Notes: a model not told the origin generated them from the letters alone. A stretch of 64,000 nucleotides of DNA from Actinomycetota bacterium (GCA_012837825.1 DUQM01000015.1:11318-75317); one strand, 5' to 3'. Numbered from the stretch's first letter, positions 39,914 to 61,477 are shown. Made by a program: numbers and translations.

Positions 39914-39942
39914 GAATTCAGTTCAGGTATAAATAAAAAATA

Positions 39943-41625: not shown

Positions 41626-41707
41626 CTTGCTTTGATCACTCTTTTTTAATCAATTTTTTATTCCGGAAACAAAACCTGATATCCAATAATAATAAAAAAA
41701 GAAAAAA

Positions 41708-43210: not shown

Positions 43211-43233
43211 TTATTACCTTTCGGAAAAATTTC

Positions 43234-45546: not shown

Positions 45547-45630
45547 AGAAACTCCTGTAATTGATTGTTTAAAGTTTAATAATAGAATAAATTCAGATTA
45601 ATTAAAATAATTAAATGTTTTTTAATTGGT

Positions 45631-46677
45631 TCATACAGATAAGTATAGCTTTTTTATTTTATACAGTCTTAGTGAATTTCCGGCCTTGATAAAAAGATTT
45701 AACAGACAGAAAACCGAATTTATAAGATATGCTTTTATTAAAGGGCCTGCCTGGTCTCTGGTTGCCATTGTCTTAAGCCACTTCGGTTCAAGCAAAAAAA
45801 AGATTTTAAATATTCCTGCAAAAGACGAATTAATGACTGCGCACCTTATTCGGTTTTTATGATAGTAGTAATAAAAATTTTTTGAAAACTTTCTGCTTGA
45901 AGCACCCTCAAAGTGCCTTGTGACTGAAGAAGGTTCAGCAATTATTTTAAGACCCAGCCTTTTTACCTTGAGGCAGTAATCAAGCTCCTCAAAGTAAGCC
46001 GGTCTGTAACCACTGTCAAATCCCCCAAGACTCCTGAACAAATCAAAAGGTGTCATAAAAAAAGCTCCTGTTACATAATCAGGATTGATTTTTTCAAGAG
46101 AATCCAGATAGGAAGCATCATTATTTATTATTTTTCCAATATCAATATTGTCATTTTGTTCTTTGTGATAGGTCACAAAGTTTGGCAGCATATATCCCCC
46201 CAGATTCTGCACACTATCACTGTCATATTCAAGGATAAGTCCGCCTGCAGCCCCTATATTGCTGCTCCTGCCGCCATGAGAATCATAGCCGTCATTTCGT
46301 TTGTTCCCGCGAAAGATATTTATGAGGTTTTGAATTGAATAGTCGTCAAGAACCATGTCGGGATTGATTAAAAGAATATAATCAAATTCCGTTTCAATAT
46401 TTTTTCTTTTCGGCAAACTTTTAAAGACAGCAAAATTAATCGCTCCGGCAAAACCTTTGTTTTTCTTCAGTTTTATGAATCTGAAATTTGAGGGAGGGAT
46501 TCTGCTCTCCGCATTTCTGTAATTTTTTACTATTTCAACAGTTTTGTCAGTTGAAGCATTATCGATGACAAACAAAGTAAAATTCTTAAAATTCTGGTTT
46601 GCTATTGAGAAAAGACACCTTTCAATAAAATTCTCACTATTATAGGTCACAACAACTATAAGTATTCTATTTTCCAT
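45631..46677 (-). CDS. Glycosyltransferase family 2
   Basis: ILIVVVTYNSENFI…FVIDNASTD…LINPDMV and YFEELDY motifs. Confidence 0.7.
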   Translation of the reverse strand: MENRILIVVVTYNSENFIERCLFSIANQNFKNFTLFVIDNASTDKTVEIVKNYRNAESRIPPSNFRFIKLKKNKGFAGAINFAVFKSLPKRKNIETEFDYILLINPDMVLDDYSIQNLINIFRGNKRNDGYDSHGGRSSNIGAAGGLILEYDSDSVQNLGGYMLPNFVTYHKEQNDNIDIGKIINNDASYLDSLEKINPDYVTGAFFMTPFDLFRSLGGFDSGYRPAYFEELDYCLKVKRLGLKIIAEPSSVTRHFEGASSRKFSKNFYYYYHKNRIRCAVINSSFAGIFKIFFLLEPKWLKTMATRDQAGPLIKAYLINSVFCLLNLFIKAGNSLRLYKIKKLYLSV

Positions 46678-46683
46678 AAGTTT

Positions 46684-48141
46684 TTAAGTTTTTCTTATTT
46701 TTCTTTTCAGGATTTTAAAATATCCGTATATTCTTCTTAGCGGGTTTCTGCTTGCAATACTTTCAAGCTCCTGTATCCTTGAGTCTTTTTCTTTTATCAT
46801 TTTTGACTGGTTTTTTATAATTTTGTCGCAGTTTTTAAGAGCTTCTTCTTTTTCAAAAAAAATCCGTTTTTCCGTATTTCTGTCAGGAGCAAAACCCGGA
46901 TGAAGCACCCATTCCGTAAAAGGTTTTGAAGTTTCAGCAAAGCTGAAATAATCGGAGGCATAATTCTTTGCTTTGAGAGCTGTTTTCTTAAGCTCTTCTT
47001 TTTTATATGAAAGCTCAACCAGCTTTTCAGAAAGATTCTCAGGATCATGCGGTTTGAAGGTATAACCTATTTTTTCTTTTTCCATTATTTTCGTAAGTTC
47101 GCACACATTGGATGAAAGAACAGGAAGGCCTGCCCTCATCCAGTCAAGTATCCTGCTCTTGCTTCCCAGCTTCACCTCGTAAATATCTCTGTCTATATTT
47201 ATTCCAATGTCTGCTTCAAAGTAATAATTGGGTACATCTTTTCCGTTTATCCAACCCATTAAAACAAAGTTTTCCTCAAAAGCGCTTTTATTTATAAGTT
47301 CCTTAAAATGAGGATAGGTGGTAATATCCTGTTCAGGTATTTCTCCCCCCGTTGAAACAAATTTTATTTTCGGATTTATTTTCATTGCTGATGTCAGTCC
47401 CTGAAATAAAGTATCCACATCTGTCCAGGTATTAAAACCCCCGGTCCATAAAACTACAAAATCATCATCCCGGATTTTACCTGTTCCGCGGAAAACCCGT
47501 TTCTCATGAACATATTTCTCGTCCGGTATCCCTATGGGTATTACTCTTGTAAATTCATATCCGGAAGTTTTTCTGTTTAGTCTTCCCGCTGCTCCAAGCT
47601 CGCCAATTGTTGCATAAGCCTGTCTGCCTGAGACACATGAAAGTATATCTGCATTTCTTATAATGCTGTATTCTTTGTTCCAGTAATGAAAAAGGCATTC
47701 ATCTGAATCATCTATAAAAGCTCTTGCCTGTCCTTCGGCCATCACATGTCCGAACAGGTCGGCCCAAAACGGTAAATCTGCCTTCCCTCTTAAAAACTGA
47801 ACTGTTTCCGAAGCTGCAAAGCTTGGGTAAAATGTTGCTCCCGCTATGACATCCGGGGAGAAATCCGAAACAAGACCTGACAATAAACCGATATCCTCAA
47901 AATCCTGTGGAGATATGATGTGATTTAAAAATGACCTGCCGTCATATGATTTTTTTTTATTCAGCACGCTTTTGAAATCACTGTCAAATGCTGAAGGAAT
48001 TGCATAAGAGATAAGGCACACTTCATGATTTTCCCTCAAAAGAGGCATTAAGAACTGCCAAGTTCTTATTCCCGTTCCATATGCTTTTTTTTCATTTTCA
48101 AACGGGAGAGGACTCATTCCGAAAAGAACGACCTTGCTCAT
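46684..48141 (-). CDS. Glycosyltransferase family 4-like with C-terminal coiled-coil tail
   Basis: GT-B fold features (…LMGWINGKDVPNYYFEADIGINIDRD…LDWMRAGLPVLSSN…) and a C-terminal KIIKNQSKMIKEKDSRIQELE coiled coil. Confidence 0.6.
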   Translation of the reverse strand: MSKVVLFGMSPLPFENEKKAYGTGIRTWQFLMPLLRENHEVCLISYAIPSAFDSDFKSVLNKKKSYDGRSFLNHIISPQDFEDIGLLSGLVSDFSPDVIAGATFYPSFAASETVQFLRGKADLPFWADLFGHVMAEGQARAFIDDSDECLFHYWNKEYSIIRNADILSCVSGRQAYATIGELGAAGRLNRKTSGYEFTRVIPIGIPDEKYVHEKRVFRGTGKIRDDDFVVLWTGGFNTWTDVDTLFQGLTSAMKINPKIKFVSTGGEIPEQDITTYPHFKELINKSAFEENFVLMGWINGKDVPNYYFEADIGINIDRDIYEVKLGSKSRILDWMRAGLPVLSSNVCELTKIMEKEKIGYTFKPHDPENLSEKLVELSYKKEELKKTALKAKNYASDYFSFAETSKPFTEWVLHPGFAPDRNTEKRIFFEKEEALKNCDKIIKNQSKMIKEKDSRIQELESIASRNPLRRIYGYFKILKRKIRKT

Positions 48142-48270: not shown

Positions 48271-50061
48271 ATGCGGACTACAGCAATAATAATTACGATA
48301 CTTTTTGTTCTGGCTTTAAGTCTTTTACTTGTTTTTGCCTTTAATTTTCTTTCTCCGTCCGGCAGAACAATCAACGATGGGAAAGAAATAATCACCACTA
48401 CCCGGACAACTTCCGGCACTGATGGGAATACAGCCACTTCCGGACAGACAACTGCTGCCGGGCCTGAAAAAGAAGATATGTCCATAGAAAAAATTGAAGT
48501 TTACCTTGACGGCACAAAAGAAGCCGGGGGAATTTTTCTTGGCGAAGCAGAATACGGACTTGCTTCTCCTGAAACTGAAAGCATGTATGGAGGAGAATTT
48601 TCAAAATCCGGATTTGAGCTTTCCTGGGACAGCACCGGATATGTCTTTGAGCCCGGTACAACCCATAGTTTTTATGTTTATGCATATATTACAGGCTCCG
48701 GATGGGAATATGCCAGAGAAACCATAACAGTGCCGGGTGAACGCCTGCAATCTTCAAATATAAAATTTTTTATTGATACTCCCGCAAACGGCAGCATTGT
48801 CGAACAGGAAACAAATATAGGAGGGTGGGCAGTTAATGCTTCGGTTCCTGATTCGCCGGGGATTTCAGCAATAGAACTTTACCTGAATGGCCCAAAAGGT
48901 TTTGGGAAAAAAGTCGGAAATGCTTCGCTCGGGGCAGCAAGAGAAGATGTGGCGGCATCAACAGGCAATCCTGCATATCTGAACAGCGGCTTTAATTTTC
49001 TGCTTCCTGCAAATATATTCGAGCCCGGAACAGATAATTCTTTATACTGCTATGCAGTTTCGGCAAATGGAGAAAGTTATGAGAACATCCTTGAGTTAAA
49101 ATCTGCAGGCAGCAGAAAAGATCAGACTGCCGTTATTTCTGTTGATAATAATATAACCTCTGAAATCGTGCAGGGTTTTGTTAAAATCCGGGGCTGGGCG
49201 GTCTTAAAGAAATCTTTTCAGGAAAACATCGTCGCAGGTACGGAAGAGAAACAATACAGCATAAAGAAAATAGTATTTACTTCGGCAAGAACAGGTAATG
49301 AGGATATATTTTCAATGAATATTGATGGATCGGAACTGACTCAGCTTACAGATAATCCTTCAAACGACATGTATCCCCAGATAAATCCGGATGGAACCAA
49401 AATCCTTTATACTTCAGACATAAACGGAACCTGGCAGATTATGAGCATGAATACTGACGGTTCAGAAAAAAAACAGCTCACAAACGGAAGATACCGAAGT
49501 GGATTTCCTACAATGACATTTGAGGGAAAATATATTTTTTACGAAGTGTATATTGATAATAACTGGGAGTTATTCAGAATGAATTCAGATGGAACAAATC
49601 AGATCAGGCTTACCTTCAGTCCGGGTATTGATGACTGGCACCCATTCGCCCATCCTTTTGAGTTTAAAATAATATATGAATCCGGTTCCATAGGCAATGA
49701 AGATATCTATTTCATGAACTACAATGGTTCAGATATAAGCAGAGTTTCTGATTTTCAGATAAGAAAAAGAGTTCCCGGTATTTCAAAAGACGGGAAATAT
49801 ATTGTCTTTGCCGGTTATGAACAAAATTTTTCTTCAATATTTATAATGAATTCTGACGGAAGCGGGCTGAAGAAACTTACCGACAATCCGGCATATAATG
49901 TCCAGCCCTGCATTTCTCCTGATAATCAGTTTATTGCTTTTTACAGCGATATAACGGGAAATGATGAAATATATATAATGAATCTTGACGGCTCGGATAT
50001 CCGGAAACTGACAGATATCCCGGGGGATGACTGGGGACCTGTATTTTTATATCAGGAATAA
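48271..50061 (+). CDS. Secreted/anchored TolB-like PD40 beta-propeller protein with Thr-rich linker and Ig-like middle region
   Basis: N-terminal signal-anchor, a TTTRTTSGTDGNTATSGQTTAAG linker, and a C-terminal series of PD40/WD40-like blades repeating the pattern DG(S/T)xIx(F/Y)xSD(R/I)xGxxEI(Y/F)xMNxDGSxxxxLTDNP. Confidence 0.7.
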   Translation: MRTTAIIITILFVLALSLLLVFAFNFLSPSGRTINDGKEIITTTRTTSGTDGNTATSGQTTAAGPEKEDMSIEKIEVYLDGTKEAGGIFLGEAEYGLASPETESMYGGEFSKSGFELSWDSTGYVFEPGTTHSFYVYAYITGSGWEYARETITVPGERLQSSNIKFFIDTPANGSIVEQETNIGGWAVNASVPDSPGISAIELYLNGPKGFGKKVGNASLGAAREDVAASTGNPAYLNSGFNFLLPANIFEPGTDNSLYCYAVSANGESYENILELKSAGSRKDQTAVISVDNNITSEIVQGFVKIRGWAVLKKSFQENIVAGTEEKQYSIKKIVFTSARTGNEDIFSMNIDGSELTQLTDNPSNDMYPQINPDGTKILYTSDINGTWQIMSMNTDGSEKKQLTNGRYRSGFPTMTFEGKYIFYEVYIDNNWELFRMNSDGTNQIRLTFSPGIDDWHPFAHPFEFKIIYESGSIGNEDIYFMNYNGSDISRVSDFQIRKRVPGISKDGKYIVFAGYEQNFSSIFIMNSDGSGLKKLTDNPAYNVQPCISPDNQFIAFYSDITGNDEIYIMNLDGSDIRKLTDIPGDDWGPVFLYQE

Positions 50062-50237
50062 TTAATAATATTCATCATAAATAAGCCGGTAGTGCGTAAG
50101 GAAGCTGCTGCATTTATTTCAGAAATAATCAATAATATCCATAACCCGGATAGCCGTTCTATTTAAATTTTACATAACAAATAAAGATAAAAAGTGGCTG
50201 ATCTTTTAAAATATCGAACGGTTTTAAACCAGCTATA

Positions 50238-50708
50238 TTACTGCCTGACTTCCCAGGTATCAGTAATTCTCAGTTGTCGCTGACGCTTAAATCTCAATTT
50301 AACCGAAACTCCCAGCGATATTCCCAGCCAGACAGCCCAAATGATATCTCGTGAAAAAAGGTAAAAAGCAAGCTCCGACAATTGCTTGCTGCCCCCAAAA
50401 AAATATGTGATGATAAGACTGGTTATCTGTCCGCCTGACAATATAAGAAGTATAAAAGGCAGTATGCCGGTCTTTAAGAATATCCTGTAGTCAAAACAGT
50501 TTTTCATTCCTTCGTGGCCTCTTAGAATCGATATTACAATGCCAAGACAGAACCCTGCTGCAATAAGAAATAATATCTTTATGGTTGTTATTGCCGGACC
50601 CGGCATTCCTGATAAGGGAATTTTCCCAAGCATATAATCAAACAATGAATAAAGAATAAAATAAAGGATAATATTTATATATGAAAAAATAATTAAAAAT
50701 TTACGCAA
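50238..50708 (-). CDS. Small integral membrane protein (4 predicted TM helices)
   Basis: 156 aa, hydrophobic with a basic C-terminal tail. It has no recognisable catalytic motif. A GtrA-like flippase role is speculative. Confidence 0.35.
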   Translation of the reverse strand: MRKFLIIFSYINIILYFILYSLFDYMLGKIPLSGMPGPAITTIKILFLIAAGFCLGIVISILRGHEGMKNCFDYRIFLKTGILPFILLILSGGQITSLIITYFFGGSKQLSELAFYLFSRDIIWAVWLGISLGVSVKLRFKRQRQLRITDTWEVRQ

Positions 50709-50806
50709 AAACCCGTACCTCCGCTTTTAGTTAAATCTATGCCAAAATTATCAGCTTTTAAAAATAAAATCAAAAACAGGAACGAAACAAATGTTTTTAT
50801 CCGATT

Positions 50807-52987
50807 TTATTCAAGTTTTTGAATTTCCATGCTTTTAAAGAAAACAGAAAGGCTTCTTGAATCATTGCTGATTCCAAGCTCTGCGGGAGTGGTGCTGTAT
50901 TTATAATCAAAAGTCATAACATTAAATCCTTCATTAAAAAGAGTCCCTTTTAGTATTAATTCGGTTTTTTCAAATTCCGCGATGCTTTCATATTTGTAAT
51001 CAGATACTTTTTCATCATTAATATGAATATTTATTCTCTGATTGCTTTTGCCATTATGAAGCGGCCTGGACTCTATTGTCAGTTTGTAATCCGCATTTGT
51101 GTCATCGATATTTAAAAATAAGACAGATATCAGCCCTGTCGCCCATGTCCCGCTGTTTTCTTCTACATGGCTGAAACCATAAACCAGATATTTTTCAGCG
51201 GCTTTGTTTGTAAAATCAAAAAATATTTTACCGCTTTCTTTCAGACTTATAATATGAGCATTGTCAGATTGGAAAACATCTGAAAGCAGTATTCTCTCAT
51301 CCCTGTCTGTGACAGGAAAGAAATACAGTCTTGATACATCATCTCTTGCAGTCAGCACCTGATACTGGCCGGATTTCTCCAGGACATCAAGGATTAAGGG
51401 ATCCACATGCTCTTTGGTAAACAGGGATCTTGAGGTAATCACCCATATATTTTTATCTGTATTTTCATTCAGGATATTAAAAAAAGCCATGGGACTTCTT
51501 AAAAGCTCCACTCCATAAGTATCATCGATTATCCTGCCGCTTTCATTATGATAAGGAGCCCAGGAAACAAGATTGCCGGTCCACAGCCAGTAATTCACTC
51601 TGCCCGTATAAGGAGGAGAATTGTATATGTCAGTTGTAATTATTATATCGTCCTCCCCGGCGTGCTCCGCCACATATTTCCCTGCCGTTGCCGCATCCCA
51701 GTGGACTGACCAGGAGTTGGAAATGGAATAAAAAATATTTAACTTCTCATTGTGCGGCCTGTAAGGCAGGGATATTGCTTCCCGGGGTTTTATTCCATTT
51801 ACAAGCAGTGCTGAAGAAATAACAAATACTGCTGCCAGAATTACCGCTCCTGCTTTTTCTGACTTTGCTTTTGAAAAGCCTGTGATTATTTTCTTTAAAA
51901 AAAGTGAAAACAGAAAGACGGTATAAGAAAAACCGGTTACAAAAACCGGCATAAGAAAATATACATACCTCTGCTGGCCATACATCTTTCCAAGGGAAAT
52001 AAATATAACAGACAGGATAAAACTTGAAAGTATCAGAAAATAATTATAGGGCCATCTTAACCTCCCCCATTTTATAAAATTTTCTTTTTCAAGATAATTG
52101 TCTTCTGCCGCCTCTTTCTTAATGGAAATTATTATTGAAAAAATTATAAAAAATACTATCCCTGCCATAAAAACATAAAACATCCCGGGGAACATAAGTT
52201 TTATTACATTAAAATAATAAGGATCGGGTATCTGAAAATATGCTTTAGTCATTGAACGCAGGCCTGTACCTTCGGAATAAAAACTTCTTCCTACCTTCCA
52301 GAAAAAAACCTGGTTGATTATCTGTGCTGCGTCAAGCACAAAAACTATAACAAGCGGAATTATTGTTTCTTTTTTAAAGAATTTTTTACCTTTGTAAAAA
52401 AGCAGCAGAATGAAAAGAAGTATAAGCACTATGCCTACACCATGAACCAGCGGGGTAAGCACCATAAAAATTACCGCAAGCACCCTGAAGGGCTTTTTGT
52501 TTTTTACAAAACCCAGATAAAAGAAAAGAAATGATAGCATATAAAAGAACTGATAATCCTGATAGTATCTTGCTTCTCTTGAAAACTGCACATACCATGT
52601 GGAAAAAGCAATTATAAAAGCTCCAAGGAGTCCTACAAACCTGTTTGCAAGCTCTTTCCCGAAAAAATATGTTGCAAGTATTGTTCCCGTGCCGAAAAAA
52701 ACACTTACTATTCTTAGAGAAAATTCACTTGTTCCCAGAAAAAAAGAGGGCAGCGCCTTGAGGTAATAATCAAAAATGCCATGCCATAAAACATTCCCTG
52801 AAGGAAGAAGAGGATAACCATGTTTAAGAATGCTGACTGTTCCTATGAATGTGTGGCCGTCATCTCCCCAGAGCGACAGATAGCTGAGATTCCTGACCCT
52901 GAGCACAAAACCGAGAACACAGATAAGCAAAAGAAATATAAAGGTAAATATATTGGATTTTTTACTGAAGTACTCTTTGATTTTCAT
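50807..52987 (-). CDS. GT-C fold polytopic membrane glycosyltransferase (ArnT/PMT, GT39/GT83-like) with C-terminal extracytoplasmic domain
   Basis: 726 aa. An N-terminal region of about 380 aa has more than 10 TM helices and a first-loop acidic motif (SLWGDDGHTF) like the PMT/ArnT DE/DD motif. A soluble C-terminal domain follows. Confidence 0.55.
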   Translation of the reverse strand: MKIKEYFSKKSNIFTFIFLLLICVLGFVLRVRNLSYLSLWGDDGHTFIGTVSILKHGYPLLPSGNVLWHGIFDYYLKALPSFFLGTSEFSLRIVSVFFGTGTILATYFFGKELANRFVGLLGAFIIAFSTWYVQFSREARYYQDYQFFYMLSFLFFYLGFVKNKKPFRVLAVIFMVLTPLVHGVGIVLILLFILLLFYKGKKFFKKETIIPLVIVFVLDAAQIINQVFFWKVGRSFYSEGTGLRSMTKAYFQIPDPYYFNVIKLMFPGMFYVFMAGIVFFIIFSIIISIKKEAAEDNYLEKENFIKWGRLRWPYNYFLILSSFILSVIFISLGKMYGQQRYVYFLMPVFVTGFSYTVFLFSLFLKKIITGFSKAKSEKAGAVILAAVFVISSALLVNGIKPREAISLPYRPHNEKLNIFYSISNSWSVHWDAATAGKYVAEHAGEDDIIITTDIYNSPPYTGRVNYWLWTGNLVSWAPYHNESGRIIDDTYGVELLRSPMAFFNILNENTDKNIWVITSRSLFTKEHVDPLILDVLEKSGQYQVLTARDDVSRLYFFPVTDRDERILLSDVFQSDNAHIISLKESGKIFFDFTNKAAEKYLVYGFSHVEENSGTWATGLISVLFLNIDDTNADYKLTIESRPLHNGKSNQRINIHINDEKVSDYKYESIAEFEKTELILKGTLFNEGFNVMTFDYKYSTTPAELGISNDSRSLSVFFKSMEIQKLE

Positions 52988-53183
52988 TTTTCTAACTGTT
53001 TTTATTTTTTTAATTTAATTAAAAAACAAATATAATTAAAGACTGACAACTATAAAAAAATACTATTTAATGTATAATAGCTAAAAAATATCTGAAAAAC
53101 CAAAAACAAAAAGTTTAAAAAGTAATATTATAAATTTTACCTGATTTTTTTAATTAAATATACTTATTTAAGAGGTTTGTTTA

Positions 53184-54152
53184 TTGAATATATTGGTAAC
53201 AGGCGGGGCAGGCTTTATAGGCTCAAGTCTTACTGACAGATTGCTGGAAAATGGCGCCGGGATTTTATGTCTGGATAATTTCAATGATTTTTATAATCCG
53301 CTTATCAAAGAAAACAATATAAGCTGCAGTCTGAAAAATAAGAATTTTAGCCTCATCCCGGGTGACATACTTGACAAAAAACTGCTTGATAGAATTTTTT
53401 CCGGCAATGAAATTCACATGGTCATCCATCTTGCAGCAATGGCAGGAGTCAGACCTTCAATTGAAAATCCGCTTCTTTATGAAAAGGTAAATATAGAAGG
53501 TACGATAAATCTTCTTGAATGCATGAAAACCCACAATGTAAAAAAGATGCTTTTTGCTTCTTCCTCTTCCGTATACGGCGGAAATAAAAAAGTGCCTTTT
53601 TCTGAAACAGACAGCGTAGACAAACCGGTTTCGCCATATGCAGCCACAAAAAAAGCCGGCGAACTTTTATGCTATAACTACCATCATCTTTATGGTTTTG
53701 CCATATACTGCCTGAGATTTTTTACAGTTTACGGTCCGCGTCAGAGACCGGAAATGGCGATACACAAGTTTACAAGACAGTTATATTCCGGAAAGAGCAT
53801 GACTGTCTTCGGAGACGGTTCAACCAGCAGGGATTATACATACATAGACGATGTCGTAAACGGCATCATTAATTGCATTGACAGGGTTAATGGATATGAA
53901 ATAATTAATCTTGGCAACTCCAGTCCGACAAAGCTGGCAGATCTTGTAAGGCTTATACAGGATATTTCGGGCAGAAAGTCTGAAATCAGAATGGAAGAAA
54001 TGAAGCCGGGAGATGTTTTTACAACTTTTGCAGATATAGAAAAGGCAAAAAAAATAATAGGATACAGGCCTGAAACATCAATTAAGGAAGGGCTTGGAAA
54101 ATTTATATTATGGTATGAAAAAAATTTAAAAGATGGAAAATTATATGAGTAA
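53184..54152 (+). CDS. NAD-dependent nucleotide-sugar epimerase (UDP-glucuronate/UDP-glucose 4-epimerase family)
   Basis: MNILVTGGAGFIGSSLTDRLLENG Rossmann motif, catalytic YAATKKAGE (YxxxK), about 322 aa. Confidence 0.8.
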   Translation: MNILVTGGAGFIGSSLTDRLLENGAGILCLDNFNDFYNPLIKENNISCSLKNKNFSLIPGDILDKKLLDRIFSGNEIHMVIHLAAMAGVRPSIENPLLYEKVNIEGTINLLECMKTHNVKKMLFASSSSVYGGNKKVPFSETDSVDKPVSPYAATKKAGELLCYNYHHLYGFAIYCLRFFTVYGPRQRPEMAIHKFTRQLYSGKSMTVFGDGSTSRDYTYIDDVVNGIINCIDRVNGYEIINLGNSSPTKLADLVRLIQDISGRKSEIRMEEMKPGDVFTTFADIEKAKKIIGYRPETSIKEGLGKFILWYEKNLKDGKLYE

Positions 54153-55140
54153 AAATCAGAGAATGGTCAAAGCCTGCAGTTTTCACGACGAGAAAGAGGA
54201 GATATATCTTTCCGTGGTAATACCTGTATATAATGAAAAACAAAGTCTTAAACATCTTTATGAAAATTTAAATGCCGTTCTTCCGGGAATCGGAAAAAAC
54301 TACGAAGTAATACTTGTAGATGACGGAAGCAGTGACGGCAGTTTTATGGAATTAAAGAAAATCCACGAAAAAAACAATAATTACAAGATCATCAGATTCA
54401 GAAAAAATTTCGGCCAGACTCCTGCCATGAGCGCCGGTTTTGATTATGCAAGAGGAGAAGTAATAATCACTCTTGATGCAGACCTTCAGAATGATCCGAA
54501 AGACATACCGCTTCTTCTTGGAAAAATGGAAGAAGGATATGACATAGTGTCGGGATGGAGAGCAAAAAGACAGGATAAGACAATTTCAAGAAAACTGCCT
54601 TCTGTAATTGCAAACTGGCTTATTGCAAAACTCACCAGAGTCCATATACATGATTACGGATGCACTCTTAAGGCATACAGCAGGGATGTGATCAAGAATA
54701 TCGAGCTTTACGGTGAAATGCACCGTTATATTCCGGCAGTTGCAAGCTGGATGGGAATTAATGTCGCAGAAGTAAAAGTAAATCATCACAGCAGAAAATT
54801 CGGCAAATCAAAATACGGTATCTCCAGAACCATAAGGGTTATTCTGGACATTATAACCATTAAATATCTTCTAAGCTATTCGCAAAGACCTATACAGATT
54901 TTTGGCCTGCTGGGTCTTTTCACCGGGACTGCCGGCCTCATAATTACCATATACCTGATAATTATGAGATTGTTCTTTCAAATGTCCCTTGCAGACAGAC
55001 CTCTTTTTACATTGTCTATCTTCATGATTTTTATCGGAGTGCAGTTAATAACAATGGGCATCCTTGCCGAGCTTATTATGCGGACTTATCATGAAGCTTC
55101 CGGAAAACCAACTTATGCGGTCAGGGAAATCATTGATTAA
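54133..55140 (+). CDS. Polyprenol-phosphate glycosyltransferase, GT2 (ArnC/GtrB/DPM1-like) with C-terminal 2-TM anchor
   Basis: LSVVIPVYNEKQSL, ILVDDGSSDGS, a DAD motif (TLDADLQND) and two C-terminal TM helices. This architecture is typical of undecaprenyl-phosphate sugar transferases. Confidence 0.8.
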   Translation: MENYMSKNQRMVKACSFHDEKEEIYLSVVIPVYNEKQSLKHLYENLNAVLPGIGKNYEVILVDDGSSDGSFMELKKIHEKNNNYKIIRFRKNFGQTPAMSAGFDYARGEVIITLDADLQNDPKDIPLLLGKMEEGYDIVSGWRAKRQDKTISRKLPSVIANWLIAKLTRVHIHDYGCTLKAYSRDVIKNIELYGEMHRYIPAVASWMGINVAEVKVNHHSRKFGKSKYGISRTIRVILDIITIKYLLSYSQRPIQIFGLLGLFTGTAGLIITIYLIIMRLFFQMSLADRPLFTLSIFMIFIGVQLITMGILAELIMRTYHEASGKPTYAVREIID

Positions 55141-55400
55141 AACTGAAGCCTGCTTATTATTTCAATGACTTTCTTTCCAAAATTGCCGTCAAGCAACCTG
55201 TAATCAAAAATCTCAATGAATATAATAAGGGCAATAAAAAAGATAAAAGCGTAAAAGAGATAATAGAAAATTTTGGCTATCCAGATTTTATACAACTTTT
55301 TCCTTCTTAAATAATTGAAACCATTCTTTTGACTTTACTGACTCAATTAAAATATAAATAGTATAAAATTTCAAAGGAAAAGAACGGATTTATAATCTTT

Positions 55401-57236
55401 TTATTTTCTCATACCGTATCCGTCCAGATATTGAACCACATAATTAAAAATAGTCTGTGCAACTACTGCTGAGCCTTCAGGGGTATAATGAACCCAGTCA
55501 AGCACATAACGTCCCGGATCCCTTGAAAGAGGCGTACAGATATCAACCACCGGGACTCCGTTTGCAGCTCCGACATTATAAATGATTCTCTGATAATACG
55601 GCCAGTCTTTTTTCGAAGGCTCTATCGAAGTATTTATGTAACCTATGCTTTCAAGGAAAACCGTTGCATTGATTGCTTTTGCTTTTCCAACAAGCCCGTT
55701 TAAATAATAATTAAACTTTTCAGTTCCTCCGCCGGTATCGTTTGTACCATAGCCTATTATTACTATATGCGGCCTGTAACCGGCAACGGATGAATCAAAA
55801 CGGTGAAATCCTCCAGAAGCATTTTCCTGGGAAATGCCGCTTGCAATAATGCTATAATCACTTCTCGGATAAGTTGCCTCCAGCATGCTCCCCAGTATCT
55901 GCGGCCAGTTTGACCTTGCAATAAGAGAGTCCCCCATGCAGACTATTGTGACCTTGAAATTGGCTTTTATGCCTATTTCTGCCTGCTCTACTTTAAAATC
56001 AGTCCCGTTTGAACTTAAGCTGAAATCCGTTTCTATTGTACCTCCGTTTGTCATACCGGAATAAACCTGAAAATCAAGGCTGACTTCTTTCTTTTCACCG
56101 ACATCTATTTTCTTTATCCTGAAAATTATCCCTTCATCAGAGGATTCAATTATTTCTGCATTGCTGCATTTTGCGCTTCCGGGAACATATGAGGTATACT
56201 GGGGAACAGGACAGGTAATTATCACATCTTCCGCCCATACATCGCCTGTATTTTCTATAGTCATATTTGAGCTTATGATGTCTCCCGCCCACAGATATTC
56301 TCCATTCTTATCCGAAAGAGTAACTACCGAATTATCAAACTCAGGGAAAAGACTGACCGTTGATTCCGCCGAAACCTGAAGATTGTCGTTTTGTTCACTT
56401 GTCAGACTTGCTGAATGCTCCAGAATTTCATCCATGGTGACTCCCTCAAGGATTCTGATACTGTAGGAAAAAGAAGTTTCGCTACCTGCTTCATAATTAC
56501 CTATTTCCCATATTATTTTATTGCTTTTCAGTTCAAATTCTTTTGGTGATATGCTGTTTTTGATAATCTCTGTTTTTTGAGGTATCTGAGCTTCAACTCT
56601 TACTCCCGTCGCATTCATGTCTCCCTTGTTTGAAGCATTAAAACTAATATTTAAAGTATCCCCTATTCTCAAATCGCTTCCGTCTTTATCTTTAAGAGAT
56701 ATCCCGCTTAAATTCATTTTGGGAGAACTGGTGATTTTAAAAGTCATTTCTTCACCAAGAATAATAGTTTTTGATTCATTGCCTAATTTATATTTCATTT
56801 CAACAGACGGGGTTTTTATTTCCATGCCATTGTCAAGCGGTTTGTCAGCTACAAGAACAATCTGTATCTTTTTGCCTTCATCTCTTTTAATAACCGGTTC
56901 CTCAAATACAAGTTTGTTTCCTTCCTCAAAATACTCTCCTGAAAAATCACCTTCATTTATTTTTGTATTCTCCGGAATTGGAAATTCAATATGGATATCA
57001 TTAACTTCCCTTCTTCCCGTATTAAAATAACCAAGTTCAATAGTTATTTTTCCGCCGGGCTTTAACTCTGCAGGAGAAAGGCTTCTGACATAATTAAGAG
57101 TCCTGTCTTCAAAATTGGGACTGAGTCTTATGAGGAAATTATATGAGATAAAAAGTCCGATGCCTATTATTGCAATTGCAATTATAACCATCAGAAAAAC
57201 ATTTAAAATTGATTTTATATCTTTCTTAATATCCAT
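55401..57236 (-). CDS. Membrane-anchored DUF11/CARDB-like repeat protein fused to C-terminal SGNH/GDSL hydrolase domain
   Basis: N-terminal TM helix, two or three beta-sandwich repeat regions, and a C-terminal SGNH block (VTIVCMGDSLIARSNW…GYGTNDTGG…DWVHYT). Confidence 0.6.
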   Translation of the reverse strand: MDIKKDIKSILNVFLMVIIAIAIIGIGLFISYNFLIRLSPNFEDRTLNYVRSLSPAELKPGGKITIELGYFNTGRREVNDIHIEFPIPENTKINEGDFSGEYFEEGNKLVFEEPVIKRDEGKKIQIVLVADKPLDNGMEIKTPSVEMKYKLGNESKTIILGEEMTFKITSSPKMNLSGISLKDKDGSDLRIGDTLNISFNASNKGDMNATGVRVEAQIPQKTEIIKNSISPKEFELKSNKIIWEIGNYEAGSETSFSYSIRILEGVTMDEILEHSASLTSEQNDNLQVSAESTVSLFPEFDNSVVTLSDKNGEYLWAGDIISSNMTIENTGDVWAEDVIITCPVPQYTSYVPGSAKCSNAEIIESSDEGIIFRIKKIDVGEKKEVSLDFQVYSGMTNGGTIETDFSLSSNGTDFKVEQAEIGIKANFKVTIVCMGDSLIARSNWPQILGSMLEATYPRSDYSIIASGISQENASGGFHRFDSSVAGYRPHIVIIGYGTNDTGGGTEKFNYYLNGLVGKAKAINATVFLESIGYINTSIEPSKKDWPYYQRIIYNVGAANGVPVVDICTPLSRDPGRYVLDWVHYTPEGSAVVAQTIFNYVVQYLDGYGMRK

Positions 57237-57957
57237 TTACATACCACAAAAAAACCAGAAATCCAAAATCTATGATAAGAAGCACTATATATGAGATAAA
57301 TATGGAAAGTCCTTTTCTTTTTACAGGCCTGAATTTTGTTATTCTCAGTATTTCAATCAGTACTACTCCCAGCAAGAAGATATAAAAAAAAGTAAGATAT
57401 TTGTTGGAGTACAATTTTTTAAAGAATTCCACAAACGGATGGTTTCTAAACCATGGAACTGTCTTTAAATCTTTAAAATAGCCGGGGCCTATTCGAAAAT
57501 TATCTTTCCCGGGTGAATTTAAAAATTTTCCTATGTTTATCCTGTTTAAATCAGCATTGCCGTCTATTTTCAAACTGATTTCTATATAGCTGTAGTCCCT
57601 GCAGTCAAAAGAAATGCCGTCCGTGAAATCATCTTCATTTAAGATGCAGTCAAATGTAAGAGCTTTCTCCGATATTATTATTTTGTCGTTTTCTTCAAAA
57701 GCTGATTTCTCAATATTGTCAAATACCCCGTCAGTGGAAAGAGATCCTGTGAAATTTATTTTTTTCCTGTCAGAACTCCAGGAAATATTGATTTTCCCGC
57801 TATCATCTTCCCAGATAAAATAGCCGAGGCTTACACCGGGCAGAAATAATGTTTTGGTGCATGAAGTAGCAAGCAGCATTATTGCAATTGCCGATACTGC
57901 AAGAAGCATGAGCCTGAAATACAATTTTTTATTTTTTATTTTTTCCGGTATTTTCAT
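57226..57957 (-). CDS. Hypothetical membrane protein (N-terminal signal/lipoprotein-like, C-terminal 2 TM)
   Basis: 243 aa. It overlaps the start of the SGNH gene by 11 nt (operonic). It has no recognisable catalytic motifs. Confidence 0.4.
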   Translation of the reverse strand: MKIPEKIKNKKLYFRLMLLAVSAIAIMLLATSCTKTLFLPGVSLGYFIWEDDSGKINISWSSDRKKINFTGSLSTDGVFDNIEKSAFEENDKIIISEKALTFDCILNEDDFTDGISFDCRDYSYIEISLKIDGNADLNRINIGKFLNSPGKDNFRIGPGYFKDLKTVPWFRNHPFVEFFKKLYSNKYLTFFYIFLLGVVLIEILRITKFRPVKRKGLSIFISYIVLLIIDFGFLVFLWYVNGY

Positions 57958-57969
57958 ATTTATATATTT

Positions 57970-59295
57970 TTATAATCCTGTTTTGTCAGACAGCTCATTT
58001 TCTCTGGAAGTTTTCCTGTTAAACAAATAAATAAGATAAACCATCCACAGGGTAATTCCCGTAAATATGCTCCTGAATATATTCACAAATTTTGCCGGAT
58101 CATAGAACCTGTTTATAAGAGGTATGGGTCCGGGCAGATAAATGAAAAATCTGTGATCAAATGAAGCAAAAAGGAATTTTGTTATAAGATCTCCCCAGTA
58201 AATGAAAACAACTGCCAGAAACAAGAACTGTACCCACTGGAAATAGTACATATTTTTCTGTTTGCCGGCAACATATAAAACAAAAGGAACACTCCATAAA
58301 AGATACTGCGGATGAAAGTATGAAAGCGCCACATATAACAGATAAATCATTGCACAGTACGACATTAAAAAATCGAAGGATTTATTTTTCAGTTTTATGA
58401 AGCTGAGAATCAGTACAGTATAAACAACCAGGAATATAAAAATCCGGTCATGAACTATGAGCTCAAGCTTGGATGAAATAATGTAGTTGAAATGTTCCGC
58501 ATTAAGCAGGGAGAATATAACGCTTTTCCCGAATGCAATATATGATACTGCCTCAATTGCAATCAGGCCGGAAAGACCTATCGCTCCCATAATCATATAA
58601 TCTTTTTTCTTCTCAGCAAGATAAATTATAAGAATCGGAAGAACCATTATCGGAAAAAATCTTATAGCCTCTGCAATGGCAAGGACAAGGACAGCCCAGT
58701 ATTTTCTTTTCTTCTTTGCCAGAAGAAAAGAAAGAAGCGTTACAAAAAGACCGATTGTGTCATGTCTTGCAAAAAGATAAAGTACAAAAATTACAATGGG
58801 GTTGAACATCCAGTACTTGAATATTTTTAATTTTTTCCGAGTGTCTCCGTCATAAAAAAGCCTCAGGATTACAAATATGCAGGCTATGTCAAAAATAAAA
58901 TATAAAAATTTGAATATGGCAAGTATAATAAAAATATTATCGCTTTTTACAAATTCAACCCAGGAAACCCACGTATCCTGATTCAGCAGAATATCTTTAT
59001 ATGAATTAATGAAAGGAAAGATGGTTTTTGACAGCAGAAAATAAACAGAATGTATTATATTTGTTATAAGCTGCTGAAAATCAGAACCTATGTTTCCATT
59101 GAAAACCGTATCCGCTGCTCTCTGATAGGTTGAAAGAAGGTCTCTCTGAAAAAAGAAAGGCATAAAAAGAAACCTGATAAATATGCCTCCAAGAAAATAT
59201 TTGTAAAAAAGAGTTAAAGATCTCCCGTCGTTTGTGATTTCAGGTGAAATAAAAATGCAACCGAGTTTTTTAAAAAAATTTTTTGCTCTTGCCAT
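57970..59295 (-). CDS. Polytopic integral membrane protein (>=10 TM), candidate GT-C-like glycosyltransferase/polymerase
   Basis: 441 aa and highly hydrophobic throughout. Its context within the glycan locus is the only functional clue. Confidence 0.35.
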   Translation of the reverse strand: MARAKNFFKKLGCIFISPEITNDGRSLTLFYKYFLGGIFIRFLFMPFFFQRDLLSTYQRAADTVFNGNIGSDFQQLITNIIHSVYFLLSKTIFPFINSYKDILLNQDTWVSWVEFVKSDNIFIILAIFKFLYFIFDIACIFVILRLFYDGDTRKKLKIFKYWMFNPIVIFVLYLFARHDTIGLFVTLLSFLLAKKKRKYWAVLVLAIAEAIRFFPIMVLPILIIYLAEKKKDYMIMGAIGLSGLIAIEAVSYIAFGKSVIFSLLNAEHFNYIISSKLELIVHDRIFIFLVVYTVLILSFIKLKNKSFDFLMSYCAMIYLLYVALSYFHPQYLLWSVPFVLYVAGKQKNMYYFQWVQFLFLAVVFIYWGDLITKFLFASFDHRFFIYLPGPIPLINRFYDPAKFVNIFRSIFTGITLWMVYLIYLFNRKTSRENELSDKTGL

Positions 59296-60403: not shown

Positions 60404-61477
60404 TTGAATATAGACAAAAAAAAGTTAAAAAACAGGATTTTTATCGCACTTAGGATTTTAATAAGCGTAGGTATATTATTCTTCCTTTTTAAAACCCAGT
60501 TCGGCAATTTTTCGGAAATCATTTCCTATATTTCCAGGACAAAGGTTAATTTCTGGATGATAGGACTTTCTTTTTTAATGTACTGGCTCGGTATTTATTT
60601 TCTTGTCCTGAGATGGCAGATTCTTTTGAAGACACAGCAGATAAAAGCTTCCATGCCTTTTTTGTTCGGTTCCTATCTTGTCGGATATTTTTTCAACAAT
60701 TTCCTGCCAACCTCTATCGGCGGAGATGTTTACAGGATTTATGACACTTCCAGACTTAAAAACAGTTCAGGCATGAAGGCTGCTTCAATCGTGCTGATGG
60801 AAAGAACCACAGGAGTCGTGAGCTCAATAATATATCTGGTTTTCGCTCTTGCAGTAGGATTCTTAAGGACTTCACATGTTGAATTCAAGATGGGAAAATG
60901 GAATATTTCAAACAACATCCTTATAGTGATGATACTTACATTTTTTATACTGGCGGTTCTTGTAATCCTTATTATGCTTTTCCCTGATTACTTCAGGCTT
61001 AACAAAGTTTTCAGGAAATTAAGATTTCTGCACAAATGGGAAGACAAGCTGAGACAAATGTATAATACATTCAAAGATTTCAGGAAATTCAAGCTTATTA
61101 TGCTTGTGACTATTATTCTGAGCATGCTTCTGCAGTTTACTTTTACTCTTAATTCTTCATTCTGCAGCCAGGGTTTCGGGATAACCCAGCTAAACCTTAT
61201 AGCCTATATATTCATAATACAGATAAGCTCAATACTTACAATGATACCAATATCCATAGGAGGCATAGGAGTCAGAGAAGGCGCTTTTGTAGTGCTTGTC
61301 GGCGCTCTTGGCGGCCCGAAGGACATAGCAACCATAGTTTCAATAGCTGTTCTCATCATGATACTTGTTCCGGGTATTATAGGCGGAATAATATATGCTC
61401 TAAGACCATACATGGACAGAAAAAGAAAACAGGCTGAGATGACAGAAAGCAAGGAATCCCCTCAAAAGGAAGCGTAA
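60404..61477 (+). CDS. UPF0104/lysylphosphatidylglycerol-synthase-TM-domain-like (flippase-like) membrane protein
   Basis: 357 aa with 8 TM helices and the family motif FLPTSIGGDVYRIYD…. Confidence 0.65.
   Translation: MNIDKKKLKNRIFIALRILISVGILFFLFKTQFGNFSEIISYISRTKVNFWMIGLSFLMYWLGIYFLVLRWQILLKTQQIKASMPFLFGSYLVGYFFNNFLPTSIGGDVYRIYDTSRLKNSSGMKAASIVLMERTTGVVSSIIYLVFALAVGFLRTSHVEFKMGKWNISNNILIVMILTFFILAVLVILIMLFPDYFRLNKVFRKLRFLHKWEDKLRQMYNTFKDFRKFKLIMLVTIILSMLLQFTFTLNSSFCSQGFGITQLNLIAYIFIIQISSILTMIPISIGGIGVREGAFVVLVGALGGPKDIATIVSIAVLIMILVPGIIGGIIYALRPYMDRKRKQAEMTESKESPQKEA

Follow-up and report, generated by a model that had tools for sequence, protein, structure and literature searches.

The window, meaning the whole 64,000-nucleotide stretch of DNA that was analysed, derives from an uncultured actinobacterium close to Candidatus Humimicrobium. 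Loci used for comparison are identified below by L numbers. The features under discussion are the following:

37779..48141, minus strand: eight cytoplasmic GT2/GT4 glycosyltransferase genes (Pfam)
48271..50061, plus strand: membrane-anchored PD40 beta-propeller protein with Ig-like repeats, 596 aa (PD40 and DUF5050 Pfam matches)
50238..50708, minus strand: 156-aa protein with four hydrophobic segments, on the same strand as the GT-C gene and 98 bp downstream of it
50807..52987, minus strand: 726-aa GT-C protein (GT-C_A class), about 11 TM helices, loop 1 WGD42[D/E]G
52988..53183, no strand: AT-rich divergent intergenic region of 196 bp between the GT-C and epimerase starts (sequence reading)
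53184..54152, plus strand: SDR of UDP-glucuronate 4-epimerase type (UDP-GlcA <-> UDP-GalA), 322 aa (PDB matches and active-site residues)
54133..55140, plus strand: ArnC/GtrB-type GT2, polyprenyl-phosphate glycosyltransferase, 335 aa (PF00535, 122 bits)
55401..57236, minus strand: membrane-anchored DUF11-repeat protein with a C-terminal SGNH/GDSL hydrolase domain, 611 aa (DUF11 and Lipase_GDSL_2 Pfam matches)
57226..57957, minus strand: membrane protein with three hydrophobic segments, 243 aa, co-operonic with the 441-aa GT-C
57970..59295, minus strand: second, previously unannotated GT-C (GT-C_B class, ALG3/PIG-M/PimE-like), 441 aa
59517..60308, plus strand: left-handed beta-helix (LbH) sugar O-acetyltransferase-like protein with a hydrophobic N-terminal extension, 263 aa (Hexapep Pfam; WcaF/WbbJ NCBIfam)
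60404..61477, plus strand: LPG_synthase_TM / COG0392 (UPF0104) flippase-like membrane protein, 357 aa (PF03706, TIGR00374)

All the features described in an earlier, sequence-only reading of this DNA were recovered where it had placed them, including the small protein beside the GT-C gene, with its four hydrophobic segments, and the PD40 propeller with its Ser/Thr-rich linker. That reading had passed over the second GT-C, the O-acetyltransferase partner, the DUF11-SGNH hydrolase and a CBM-like C-terminal domain of the first GT-C. The divergent layout that it reported holds, with the GT-C gene on the minus strand, the epimerase and GT2 genes on the plus strand and 196 bp between the starts, as does the coupling of the epimerase to the GT2, whose genes overlap by 20 nt. 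The epimerase starts at a TTG, with a Shine-Dalgarno-like AAGAGG upstream. Each strand of the intergenic region has promoter-like hexamers, although no more commonly than shuffled sequence does, and a scan of positions 50000-55500 for promoters and terminators returned 16 sites against the 19 expected from shuffled sequence.

The GT2 and its coupled epimerase

Residues 26-334 of the GT2 align with residues 10-314 of ArnC (9hwj) at E = 3.7e-64, and the protein also matches the solved GtrB sll0501 (1e-45). Its DxD motif is Asp-Ala-Asp at residues 115-117 (LDADLQND), and two hydrophobic helices lie near the C-terminus (about 259-277 and 294-312). The polyprenol-phosphate transferase features claimed from the sequence, namely the DAD motif and the two-helix C-terminal anchor, are therefore borne out by an end-to-end alignment to ArnC and GtrB. 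The ArnC match and that of the epimerase to 5u4q (281 bits) are far above chance. The GT2 nevertheless falls below the NCBIfam equivalog cutoffs, scoring 247 bits against 529 for ArnC and 183 bits against 500 for PgfS. Homology identifies the enzyme type; the sugar it loads is probably GalA, because the epimerase has the carboxylate-binding residues of UDP-glucuronate 4-epimerases.

The best PDB matches of the epimerase are 5u4q, Bacillus cereus UGAepi (6zl6/6zla, 205 bits) and MoeE5. The sequence contains GGAGFIG, a run of four Ser (126-129) aligned to T126-S127-S128 of BcUGAepi, the Tyr and Lys of YAATK (152-156), and the motif FFTVYGPRQRPEMA, which bears the equivalents of T178 and R185. 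Seven BcUGAepi residues are kept (S127, S128, Y149, K153, T178, R185 and T280) and T126 is replaced by Ser; the roles of the UGAepi residues, that of R185 included, are taken from PMC12338863. Like 5u4q, the protein has Ala rather than Pro at position 85, and the motif FFTVYGPxxRPxM is common only to UGAepis among the PDB matches listed. The SDR motifs, the S/T-Y-K triad, the carboxylate-binding Ser/Thr and the Arg185 equivalent that mark a UDP-glucuronate 4-epimerase (EC 5.1.3.6) are all present, so that what had been called a UDP-sugar 4-epimerase can be refined to a UDP-glucuronate 4-epimerase-like protein. A scan of the window ORFs, complete but for a few at 16.7-24.6 kb, turned up no UDP-glucose 6-dehydrogenase that would supply UDP-GlcA.

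The 726-aa GT-C and its genomic partners

Neither phmmer with the GT-C sequence nor hmmsearch with a 37-sequence profile found a solved GT-C among all PDB sequences, and family membership was therefore decided by fold; weak C-type lectin matches from the PDB search (E about 1) were taken for noise. The multi-TM core superposes structurally on solved GT-Cs, which places it in GT-C_A. Loop 1 reads W40-G-D42-D43-G44. All 37 homologues have D42, followed at position 43 by Asp in 28 of them and by Glu in the other nine; R92, R137, Y141, Q338, R340 and Y341 are likewise invariant. Both the kinship to GT-C enzymes and the acidic pair in loop 1 claimed by the sequence-only reading are thereby upheld, and a GT-C activity may be predicted from fold and motif. 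An extracytoplasmic alpha/beta domain (residues ~400-560) contains an invariant aromatic/acidic cluster, and the C-terminus (~580-726) forms a CBM-like beta-sandwich, a beta-jelly-roll fold that is not specific to carbohydrate binding.

The protein had been termed ArnT/PMT-like, which stands as structural likeness but not as membership of PMT, ArnT, YfhO or OST proper. PMT_2 is matched only at residues 78-218, with a borderline score (26.3 bits; cutoff 26.1); it is this weak match that gives GT-C homologues their NCBI 'family 39' names. No PF02366 or MIR match was found in Pfam, and the 37-homologue profile retrieved no solved PMT, so assignment to PMT/GT39 was rejected. Assignment to ArnT/GT83 was also rejected, ArnT being absent from the NCBIfam matches and from the PDB searches by phmmer and profile, as was assignment to the YfhO family (PgfM1, PgtC2, the CsbB partner), for which there is no PF09586 match. 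In L003, a separate YfhO gene adjoins the GT-C homologue. In Foldseek comparisons AglB, STT3 and PglB rank high, and ArnT and AglB score almost equal to Pmt4. Nevertheless, the protein reaches 18.6 bits with TIGR04154, whose cutoff is 450, and the invariant [D/N]-Y-W-L-W at residues 465-469 is unlike the WWDYG of the STT3/AglB/PglB oligosaccharyltransferases in order and position. An OST-like reading was set aside on grounds of motif and gene context rather than structure: WWDYG is missing, and having this GT2 next door suggests that a single sugar is carried through a monophosphate link.

The pairing of a polyprenyl-phosphate GT2 with this GT-C is real. The two homologues lie next to each other, a median of 23 bp apart, in 21 of the 23 loci from other phyla, and in L006 the two genes overlap. 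The GT-C, epimerase and GT2 genes are found together, divergent or co-directional, in L001, L002, L010-L012, L015, L020, L021, L023, L027 and L031; in L027 the GT-C, epimerase, GT2, (rSAM), (SDR), LbH and UPF0104 genes form a single co-directional string. The adjacency of an ArnC/GtrB-type GT2, seen in most of the Humimicrobiia loci as well as in those of other phyla, is indirect evidence that the GT-C may use a polyprenyl-(di)phosphate-linked donor. The 726-aa family, poorly described by current annotation and loosely labelled 'family 39', is a distinct and widespread GT-C family of ~700 clusters at 50% identity. In other phyla it belongs to a conserved GT2 / O-acetyltransferase / deacetylase operon.

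The O-acetyltransferase is a conserved cross-phylum partner of the GT2/GT-C pair, since its gene adjoins that of the GT-C in 16 of the 23 loci from other phyla. The best PDB relatives of the 263-aa protein in the window are galactoside, maltose and polysialic-acid O-acetyltransferases. The 611-aa DUF11-SGNH protein likely works outside the cytoplasm, as an esterase or as an enzyme that handles acyl groups; it has orthologues or analogues in L003, L008, L009, L010, L011, L012 and L015, and the sister lineages L001 and L002 have a DUF11 and PF01522 deacetylase at the equivalent place. The 243-aa gene overlaps its neighbours by a few nucleotides and is kept beside the 441-aa GT-C gene in L009, L011, L015 and L025; its product has no family match in Pfam or NCBIfam. 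The 441-aa GT-C_B enzyme itself has no significant Pfam match and is not well described by current annotation. A tblastn search of the window returned no YdjC, PF01522, rSAM-SPASM or second-SDR homologues.

Flippase candidates and the acceptor

Two proteins have been considered as translocase. The 357-aa UPF0104 protein, whose gene begins 5.26 kb past the GT2 stop, belongs clearly to its family (PF03706, 129.2 bits against a cutoff of 33.4; TIGR00374, 82.7 bits against 43.2), although it has no sequence match to any solved structure. Among the Humimicrobiia loci examined, homologues occur in L001-L003, L008-L011, L015, L020, L021, L027 and L031. The COG0392 family has independently been predicted to flip lipid-linked sugars beside archaeal GT2, GT-C and deacetylase genes (PMC5898192). 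Given this co-occurrence and that prediction, the earlier proposal of the UPF0104 protein as flippase gains support; it is the better candidate translocase for the lipid-linked sugar, and the locus in turn lends bacterial comparative support to the prediction for COG0392 proteins.

The 156-aa protein fares otherwise. Its role as a flippase is not supported: the window protein and its L001 orthologue have no Pfam match even at E <= 10, and no NCBIfam match was found. GtrA-like and SMR (ArnE/F) assignments were rejected, there being no PF04138 or EamA/SMR match. Its relatives amount to 17 clade-restricted clusters, none named and none with a precomputed Pfam domain, and relatives outside the clade were not detected. 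The gene is always paired with that for the PD40 protein (L001, L002, L012, L013, L021, L027, L031, L032 and L043), and the two adjoin the GT-C gene in two arrangements, one in L027, L032 and L043 and the other in the window, L001 and L002.

The PD40 protein had been called a TolB-like partner, a description that applies to its propeller alone. The TIGR02800 match comes from the propeller repeats only and, at 151.9 bits, stays below the cutoff of 343.15, and assignment as TolB was rejected; the N-terminus comprises a TM anchor (residues 6-24), a linker and Ig-like repeats. The linker includes a Ser/Thr-rich stretch (12 of 25 residues, 37-61), the sole such stretch among the real genes of the window. 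In three of nine full-length syntenic orthologues (L027, L032 and L043), however, the linker is acidic, Pro-rich and poor in Ser and Thr. The suggestion that this protein is a glycosylation target is accordingly weak: its linkage to the GT-C survives rearrangement, but conservation does not extend to the Ser/Thr-rich linker. The protein may be a partner or a target.

We favour a glycan over a protein as acceptor, because of the CBM-like domain on the GT-C. The eight GT2/GT4 genes likely build the glycan that the module decorates; three of them (GT4_485, GT2_348 and GT4_770) are syntenic in L001, L002, L012, L013, L021 and L031. The window has none of the genes that would define the glycan pathway, be it for an initiating phosphoglycosyltransferase, for Wzx/Wzy or for an ABC exporter. 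A pure glycan model leaves unexplained the persistence of the PD40 and 156-aa genes beside the GT-C gene despite rearrangement.

Proposed pathway, alternatives and known systems

Overall, the locus is best read as an ordinary two-step lipid-carrier sugar-decoration system of a well-known kind, and the general picture of such systems is left unchanged by it. On balance we think it probable that it constitutes a module for lipid-carrier-mediated extracytoplasmic glycosylation within a large envelope-glycan gene cluster; the donor sugar, the carrier lipid and the acceptor are all inferences. Judging from its active-site residues, the SDR would convert UDP-GlcA to UDP-GalA. The translationally coupled GT2 would load the sugar onto polyprenyl phosphate at the cytoplasmic face, and the polyprenyl-P-sugar would be flipped, with the UPF0104 protein rather than the 156-aa protein as the best candidate on grounds of co-occurrence. 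The 726-aa GT-C would then move the sugar to an extracytoplasmic acceptor by means of invariant Asp42 in its first outside loop. This acceptor is most likely a cell-envelope glycan built by the flanking GT2/GT4 genes, which the GT-C would recognise by its aromatic-rich domain and CBM-like beta-sandwich. The O-acetyltransferase and the extracytoplasmic DUF11-SGNH hydrolase probably add and handle acetyl groups, either on that sugar or on that polymer, and the second GT-C may use the same or another lipid-linked donor. If this holds, the locus predicts a testable envelope feature of the Humimicrobiia, an uncultured actinobacterial class, in the form of extracytoplasmic GalA decoration, probably O-acetylated.

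Of the alternatives, the one to be taken most seriously, although we still consider it rather unlikely, is that a sugar other than GalA is carried, the epimerase feeding UDP-GalA or another 4-epimer to cytoplasmic glycosyltransferases while the GT2 loads Glc, GlcNAc/GalNAc or an amino sugar. The sugar specificity of the GT2 is unreadable from its sequence, and relatives from other phyla have a YdjC deacetylase alongside the GT2 and GT-C: in Aminicenantes and Clostridia-like MAGs the operon runs YdjC-GT2-GT-C-LbH with no UGAepi, an arrangement that we take to resemble the amino-sugar routes NaxD/FlmF2/FlmK and LgmABC. In sister Humimicrobiia a PF01522 deacetylase adjoins the GT-C gene, and P0081 is a fusion of GT-C and deacetylase. 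The window, however, has neither type of deacetylase gene, its LbH protein is nearest to O-acetyltransferases and not N-acetyltransferases, and the epimerase, besides overlapping the GT2 gene, travels with it in all the loci listed above for the three-gene pairing and in L076. Protein O-glycosylation, in which the GT-C would modify Ser/Thr of the PD40 linker or such linkers generally, as in streptococcal PgfS/PgfE/PgfM1 and GtrB/PgtC2 or with actinobacterial Pmt, appears unlikely. It would make sense of the TM anchor followed by a Ser/Thr-rich stretch that is unique in the window, of the PD40 and 156-aa genes remaining beside the GT-C gene in both arrangements, and of the score of the GT2 against the PgfS model, but the Ser/Thr-poor linkers of the three synteny-keeping orthologues count against it. 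Moreover, GT-C homologues of 34-43% identity in L003, L008, L009 and L010 have no PD40 neighbour, and the GT-C of the window lacks the PMT MIR domain and any YfhO match, carries a CBM-like domain and resembles ArnT and AglB structurally almost as well as Pmt4.

It is more improbable still that the GT2 product is used mainly by another GT-C, either the 441-aa enzyme or paralogues elsewhere, with the 726-aa enzyme taking a different lipid-linked donor and its proximity reflecting cluster membership only. The GT2 and the second GT-C are 2.8 kb apart, several paralogous GT-Cs occur in the Humimicrobiia loci L001, L002, L009 and L010, and a 43%-identical GT-C in L008 has no GT2 within 10 kb. Against this, the GT2 adjoins 726-aa-family homologues in nearly all the loci from other phyla, where there is no homologue of the 441-aa protein, the pairing with epimerase and GT2 is kept in the loci listed above, and the 441-aa protein is present in few (L009, L011, L015 and L025).

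An extended form of the preferred GalA pathway can be put forward as speculation, and we think it improbable as a whole. A deep-branching actinobacterial lineage would use polyprenyl-phosphate-galacturonate to place anionic GalA on a wall glycan or on the membrane-anchored PD40 scaffold, as a teichuronic-like charge decoration. The clade-specific PD40 and 156-aa pair would be dedicated to a GT-C with an acquired CBM-like domain, either as its acceptor or as its presenting partner, and the 726-aa proteins would be an uncharacterised cross-phylum GT-C family with the ancestral operon YdjC-GT2-GT-C-O-acetyltransferase. To our knowledge, the polyprenyl-phosphate-galacturonate route has so far been described for LPS in Gram-negative bacteria.

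Comparison with that route is one of function only. If the sugar is GalA, the chemistry is that of RgtE with RgtA-D/F in Rhizobium and Aquifex, where bactoprenyl-P-GalA is the donor for LPS (functions of rgtDFE as summarised in PMC7663294), and the window would have the same UDP-GlcA 4-epimerase, GT2 for polyprenyl-P-GalA and GT-C transferase. A lipid A/LPS core acceptor cannot be assumed in an actinobacterial lineage, however, and the GT-C of the window has the extra CBM-like domain. A literature search on RgtE and ArnT jointly found nothing, and a looser one found secondary citations only. Relative to ArnC/ArnT (with ArnD and ArnE/F), the GT2 scores less than half the ArnC cutoff, the GT-C has no sequence-level ArnT match, and the window has UGAepi as its sugar-nucleotide enzyme in place of ArnA and ArnB, with no lipid A pathway genes or SMR-type ArnE/F. 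The mycobacterial EmbA/B/C and AftD, GT-Cs with carbohydrate-binding domains, score structurally far below Pmt4, ArnT and AglB. The PpgS/Rv3779 GalN route is also distant, the PpgS model scoring 48.6 bits against a cutoff of 370, and no arabinogalactan genes were found.

Streptococcal Pgf (PgfS/PgfE/PgfM1) and GtrB/PgtC2 have the same set of GT2, 4-epimerase and GT-C (PMC12041528). Their targets are Ser/Thr-rich disordered regions, for which the window candidate is the PD40 linker protein, whose linker is not conserved as Ser/Thr-rich; their GT-Cs belong to the YfhO family, unlike that of the window, the GT2 is far below the PgfS cutoff, and the epimerase type differs. In archaea, an AglD-like GT2 occurs with arCOG00563 (TIGR03663, Agl23) and COG0392, often with a polysaccharide deacetylase (PMC5898192), which is the triad of the window (GT2, PMT/STT3-like membrane protein, LPG_synthase_TM). 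The GT-C nevertheless matches TIGR03663 weakly (E = 8.9e-7, 28 bits, far below the cutoff of 126), and the archaeal system assembles N-glycans on dolichol, whereas the host of the window is bacterial, as indicated by its tmRNA. As for GtrA/GtrB/GtrC, the GT2 is GtrB-like, while no GtrA (PF04138) homologue is recognised in the window, the 156-aa protein having no match, and the GT-C is neither GtrC-like nor YfhO. The logic is nonetheless the same as in GtrA/B/C O-antigen glucosylation and CsbB/YfhO teichoic-acid glycosylation, namely the decoration of a pre-made polymer with one sugar.

Gene content of the locus

A tmRNA at 81-434 marks the window DNA as bacterial; the G+C content is ~36%. Homologues of the 726-aa membrane glycosyltransferase (GT-C) come from Actinomycetota MAGs that bear the name Candidatus Humimicrobiaceae, the best genome match being Candidatus Humimicrobium oleiphilum UBA1414 at 89% identity. 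All ORFs named in the sequence-only reading, which had proposed a three-component glycosylation module with a TolB-like partner, were recovered in place. The confirmed ORFs of the module and its surroundings are as follows.

48271-50061 (+), PD40 protein, a membrane-anchored beta-propeller protein
50238-50708 (-), 156-aa membrane protein
50807-52987 (-), 726-aa membrane protein (GT-C)
53184-54152 (+), SDR epimerase
54133-55140 (+), GT2, overlapping the epimerase gene by 20 nt
60404-61477 (+), UPF0104 protein, starting 5.26 kb past the GT2 stop

A second GT-C of 441 aa, a 243-aa membrane protein and a DUF11-SGNH hydrolase form one operon, running from 59295 to 55401 (-). In sister lineages, a protein with DUF11 and a PF01522 deacetylase domain replaces the SGNH protein (locus L001 12343-14388, locus L002 12455-14500), and a 996-aa homologue, P0081, joins the GT-C to a PF01522 polysaccharide deacetylase in one polypeptide. 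Taken with the hexapeptide protein LbH, whose closest relatives are sugar O-acetyltransferases, these deacetylases argue that acetyl handling is recurrent in the system.

Positions 1-36700 of the window hold housekeeping and sugar metabolism genes: the tmRNA, a CtpA-like S41 protease, a PcsB-like M23 peptidase, FtsX, RF2, SecA, NDP-sugar pyrophosphorylase, PGI, PGM/PMM, and an ABC transporter for sugar accompanied by a LacI regulator. The window ORFs scanned include no UDP-glucose dehydrogenase. At the other end, the ORF at 61608-64000 (-), listed as 699 aa, is incomplete: its frame is open to the right edge, and it matches a 902-aa GT2-GT4 fusion in L003 (57% identity) from residue 43 of that protein onward, which means that the gene continues past the window.

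The glycosyltransferases and the carried sugar

The GT2 has a D-A-D motif (115-117) and two C-terminal hydrophobic helices. It aligns end-to-end with solved ArnC 9hwj (E = 3.7e-64, residues 26-334 on 10-314) and with Synechocystis GtrB sll0501 (1e-45), both TM helices being covered in each case. Its scores fall below the equivalog cutoffs of ArnC (247 bits against 529) and PgfS (183 against 500). The GT2 is therefore an ArnC/GtrB-type polyprenyl-phosphate glycosyltransferase, a type that does not by itself specify the sugar.

The sugar is suggested by the adjacent epimerase. Among solved structures, this enzyme is closest to 5u4q from Klebsiella (281 bits), 6zl6/6zla, the B. cereus UDP-glucuronate 4-epimerase (205 bits), and MoeE5, with GalE, WbgU and WbpP scoring below these. 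Entry 5u4q is deposited under the name dTDP-glucose dehydratase; we take it to be a Gla_KP/Uge-type epimerase. The B. cereus residues S127, S128, Y149, K153, T178, R185 and T280 are kept, while T126 is replaced by Ser; in these enzymes, the substrate carboxylate is held by R185 and a Ser/Thr network (PMC12338863). The window epimerase has its FFTVYGPxxRPxM stretch in common with the three UDP-glucuronate 4-epimerases compared, where the UDP-GlcNAc 4-epimerase 6dnt reads YFNVFGPRQD. The relatives, the kept carboxylate-binding residues and this stretch together indicate that UDP-GalA is most likely the sugar nucleotide made beside GT2. That GalA is also the sugar carried we rate at slightly better than even.

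Assignment of the 726-aa protein to the GT-C class would be thin on its sequence matches: PMT_2 scores 26.3 bits with a cutoff of 26.1, TIGR03663 (Agl23) and an archaeal STT3 model match weakly, and no solved GT-C was found by sequence with either the protein or a profile of 37 homologues as query. Foldseek places AglB, STT3 and PglB high among its matches. The loop-1 DD motif is present as WGDDG (residues 40-44); all 37 homologues keep D42 and have D or E at position 43, and R92, R137, Y141, Q338, R340 and Y341 are invariant as well. The extracytoplasmic C-terminal part contains an alpha/beta domain bearing an invariant aromatic/acidic cluster (D431, D447, Y460, [D/N]465-Y-W-L-W469, W476 and W515). 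The stretch at 465-469 superficially resembles the WWDYG of oligosaccharyltransferases. The protein is not a PMT, there being no MIR domain and no PF02366 match; by sequence it is not an oligosaccharyltransferase either, since WWDYG itself is absent, nor is it ArnT or YfhO. The protein appears to belong to a family of its own, which comprises 703 clusters at 50% identity (E <= 1e-30, exhaustive profile search). Full-length matches, beta-sandwich included, were limited to about ten of the 150 best-scoring clusters listed.

Conservation of the module

Homologues of each window protein were tabulated across 88 fetched loci. In Humimicrobiia, one arm of a conserved block carries UPF0104, (LbH acetyltransferase), (second SDR), (radical SAM/SPASM), GT2 and UDP-glucuronate 4-epimerase; the divergent arm carries GT-C, (DUF11-hydrolase) and the 156-aa gene, followed by PD40 on the opposite strand and then GT4, GT2 and GT4. 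In L027, GT-C is inverted to give one co-directional string of GT-C, epimerase, GT2, radical SAM, SDR, LbH and UPF0104, which argues that these form one functional unit. The radical SAM/SPASM and second SDR genes, which may modify the sugar or its carrier, lie directly 3' of the ArnC-like GT2 in sister Humimicrobiia (L001 6923-7928, L002 6935-7765, L003 17287-18297, L010 2850-3854 and L027); they are absent from the closest relatives L011, L012 and L015 and from the window, where tblastn found nothing. A B12-binding radical SAM lies close by in L001, L002 and L010.

Outside Actinomycetota, GT-C homologues of 25-30% identity occur in Aminicenantes and Clostridia-like MAGs. Of the 23 such loci that extend 4 kb or more to each side, 21 have a GT2 homologue beside GT-C (median gap 23 bp) and 16 have the LbH homologue adjacent. 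YdjC deacetylase is present in 36 loci. The compact, conserved operon is YdjC-GT2-GT-C-LbH (L006 4135-8891, L035, L037, L038, L044, L050, L051, L055, L056, L062, L064, L065, L074, L078, L079 and others), with GT2 and GT-C overlapping in L006. The adjacency, the operon and the overlap are strong comparative evidence that GT2 and the GT-C family would work together. The operon is reminiscent of the NaxD/FlmF2/FlmK or LgmABC amino-sugar routes, except that its GT-C belongs to the distinct family of the 726-aa protein.

At L009 1275-3681, a PF01522 deacetylase is followed by a short GT2 (228 aa) and a DUF2304 small membrane protein, a layout that we take to resemble mycobacterial PpgS/Rv3632. These genomes thus encode at least two lipid-carrier sugar modules.

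Translocation, acceptor and known systems

The 156-aa protein has the four hydrophobic segments ascribed to it, but its proposed role as flippase drew nothing in support: it has no family match even at E = 10 and only 17 relatives, none named. Its gene occurs only with that of PD40. The UPF0104 protein, a clear COG0392/LPG_synthase_TM member that co-occurs with the module in Humimicrobiia loci having enough flank, is a candidate flippase for the lipid-linked sugar. It is absent from module operons of other phyla. Archaeal members are predicted to flip lipid-linked sugars and have an AglD-like GT2, a PMT/STT3-like protein and a deacetylase as neighbours (PMC5898192).

We favour a glycan as acceptor, at about an even chance: GT-C bears both a CBM-like domain and an outside domain rich in aromatic residues, the module has more than eight cytoplasmic GT genes at its flanks, and one homologue is located within a Wzy-type cluster. 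That the acceptor is a protein seems unlikely. PD40, earlier suggested as a target, carries, past its TM anchor, a stretch of 25 residues of which 12 are Ser/Thr, the sole such stretch among the real genes of the window and exactly the kind of linker glycosylated by streptococcal GT2, epimerase and GT-C systems, which act on Ser/Thr-rich regions (PMC12041528). PD40 and the 156-aa gene stay beside GT-C in two different arrangements, and the linkers of six orthologues are Ser/Thr-rich; however, those of three synteny-keeping orthologues (L027, L032 and L043) are acidic, Pro-rich and Ser/Thr-poor, and more distant GT-C homologues have no PD40 neighbour, leaving PD40 a weak candidate. Nor is it TolB, as TIGR02800 matches in the propeller only, at 152 bits where the cutoff is 343.

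Whichever the acceptor, the core of the module very probably acts as follows: GT2 would load the sugar onto polyprenyl phosphate, the linked sugar would be translocated, and GT-C would transfer it outside the cell. The sequence-only reading is supported in part: the architecture it put forward was right, and several components had escaped it. Such a module would work like the ArnC/ArnT, RgtE/RgtA-D, GtrB/GtrC, PgfS/PgfM1 and archaeal AglD-Agl23-COG0392 sets, while its GT-C falls, at the sequence level, outside the GT-C families of all of these.
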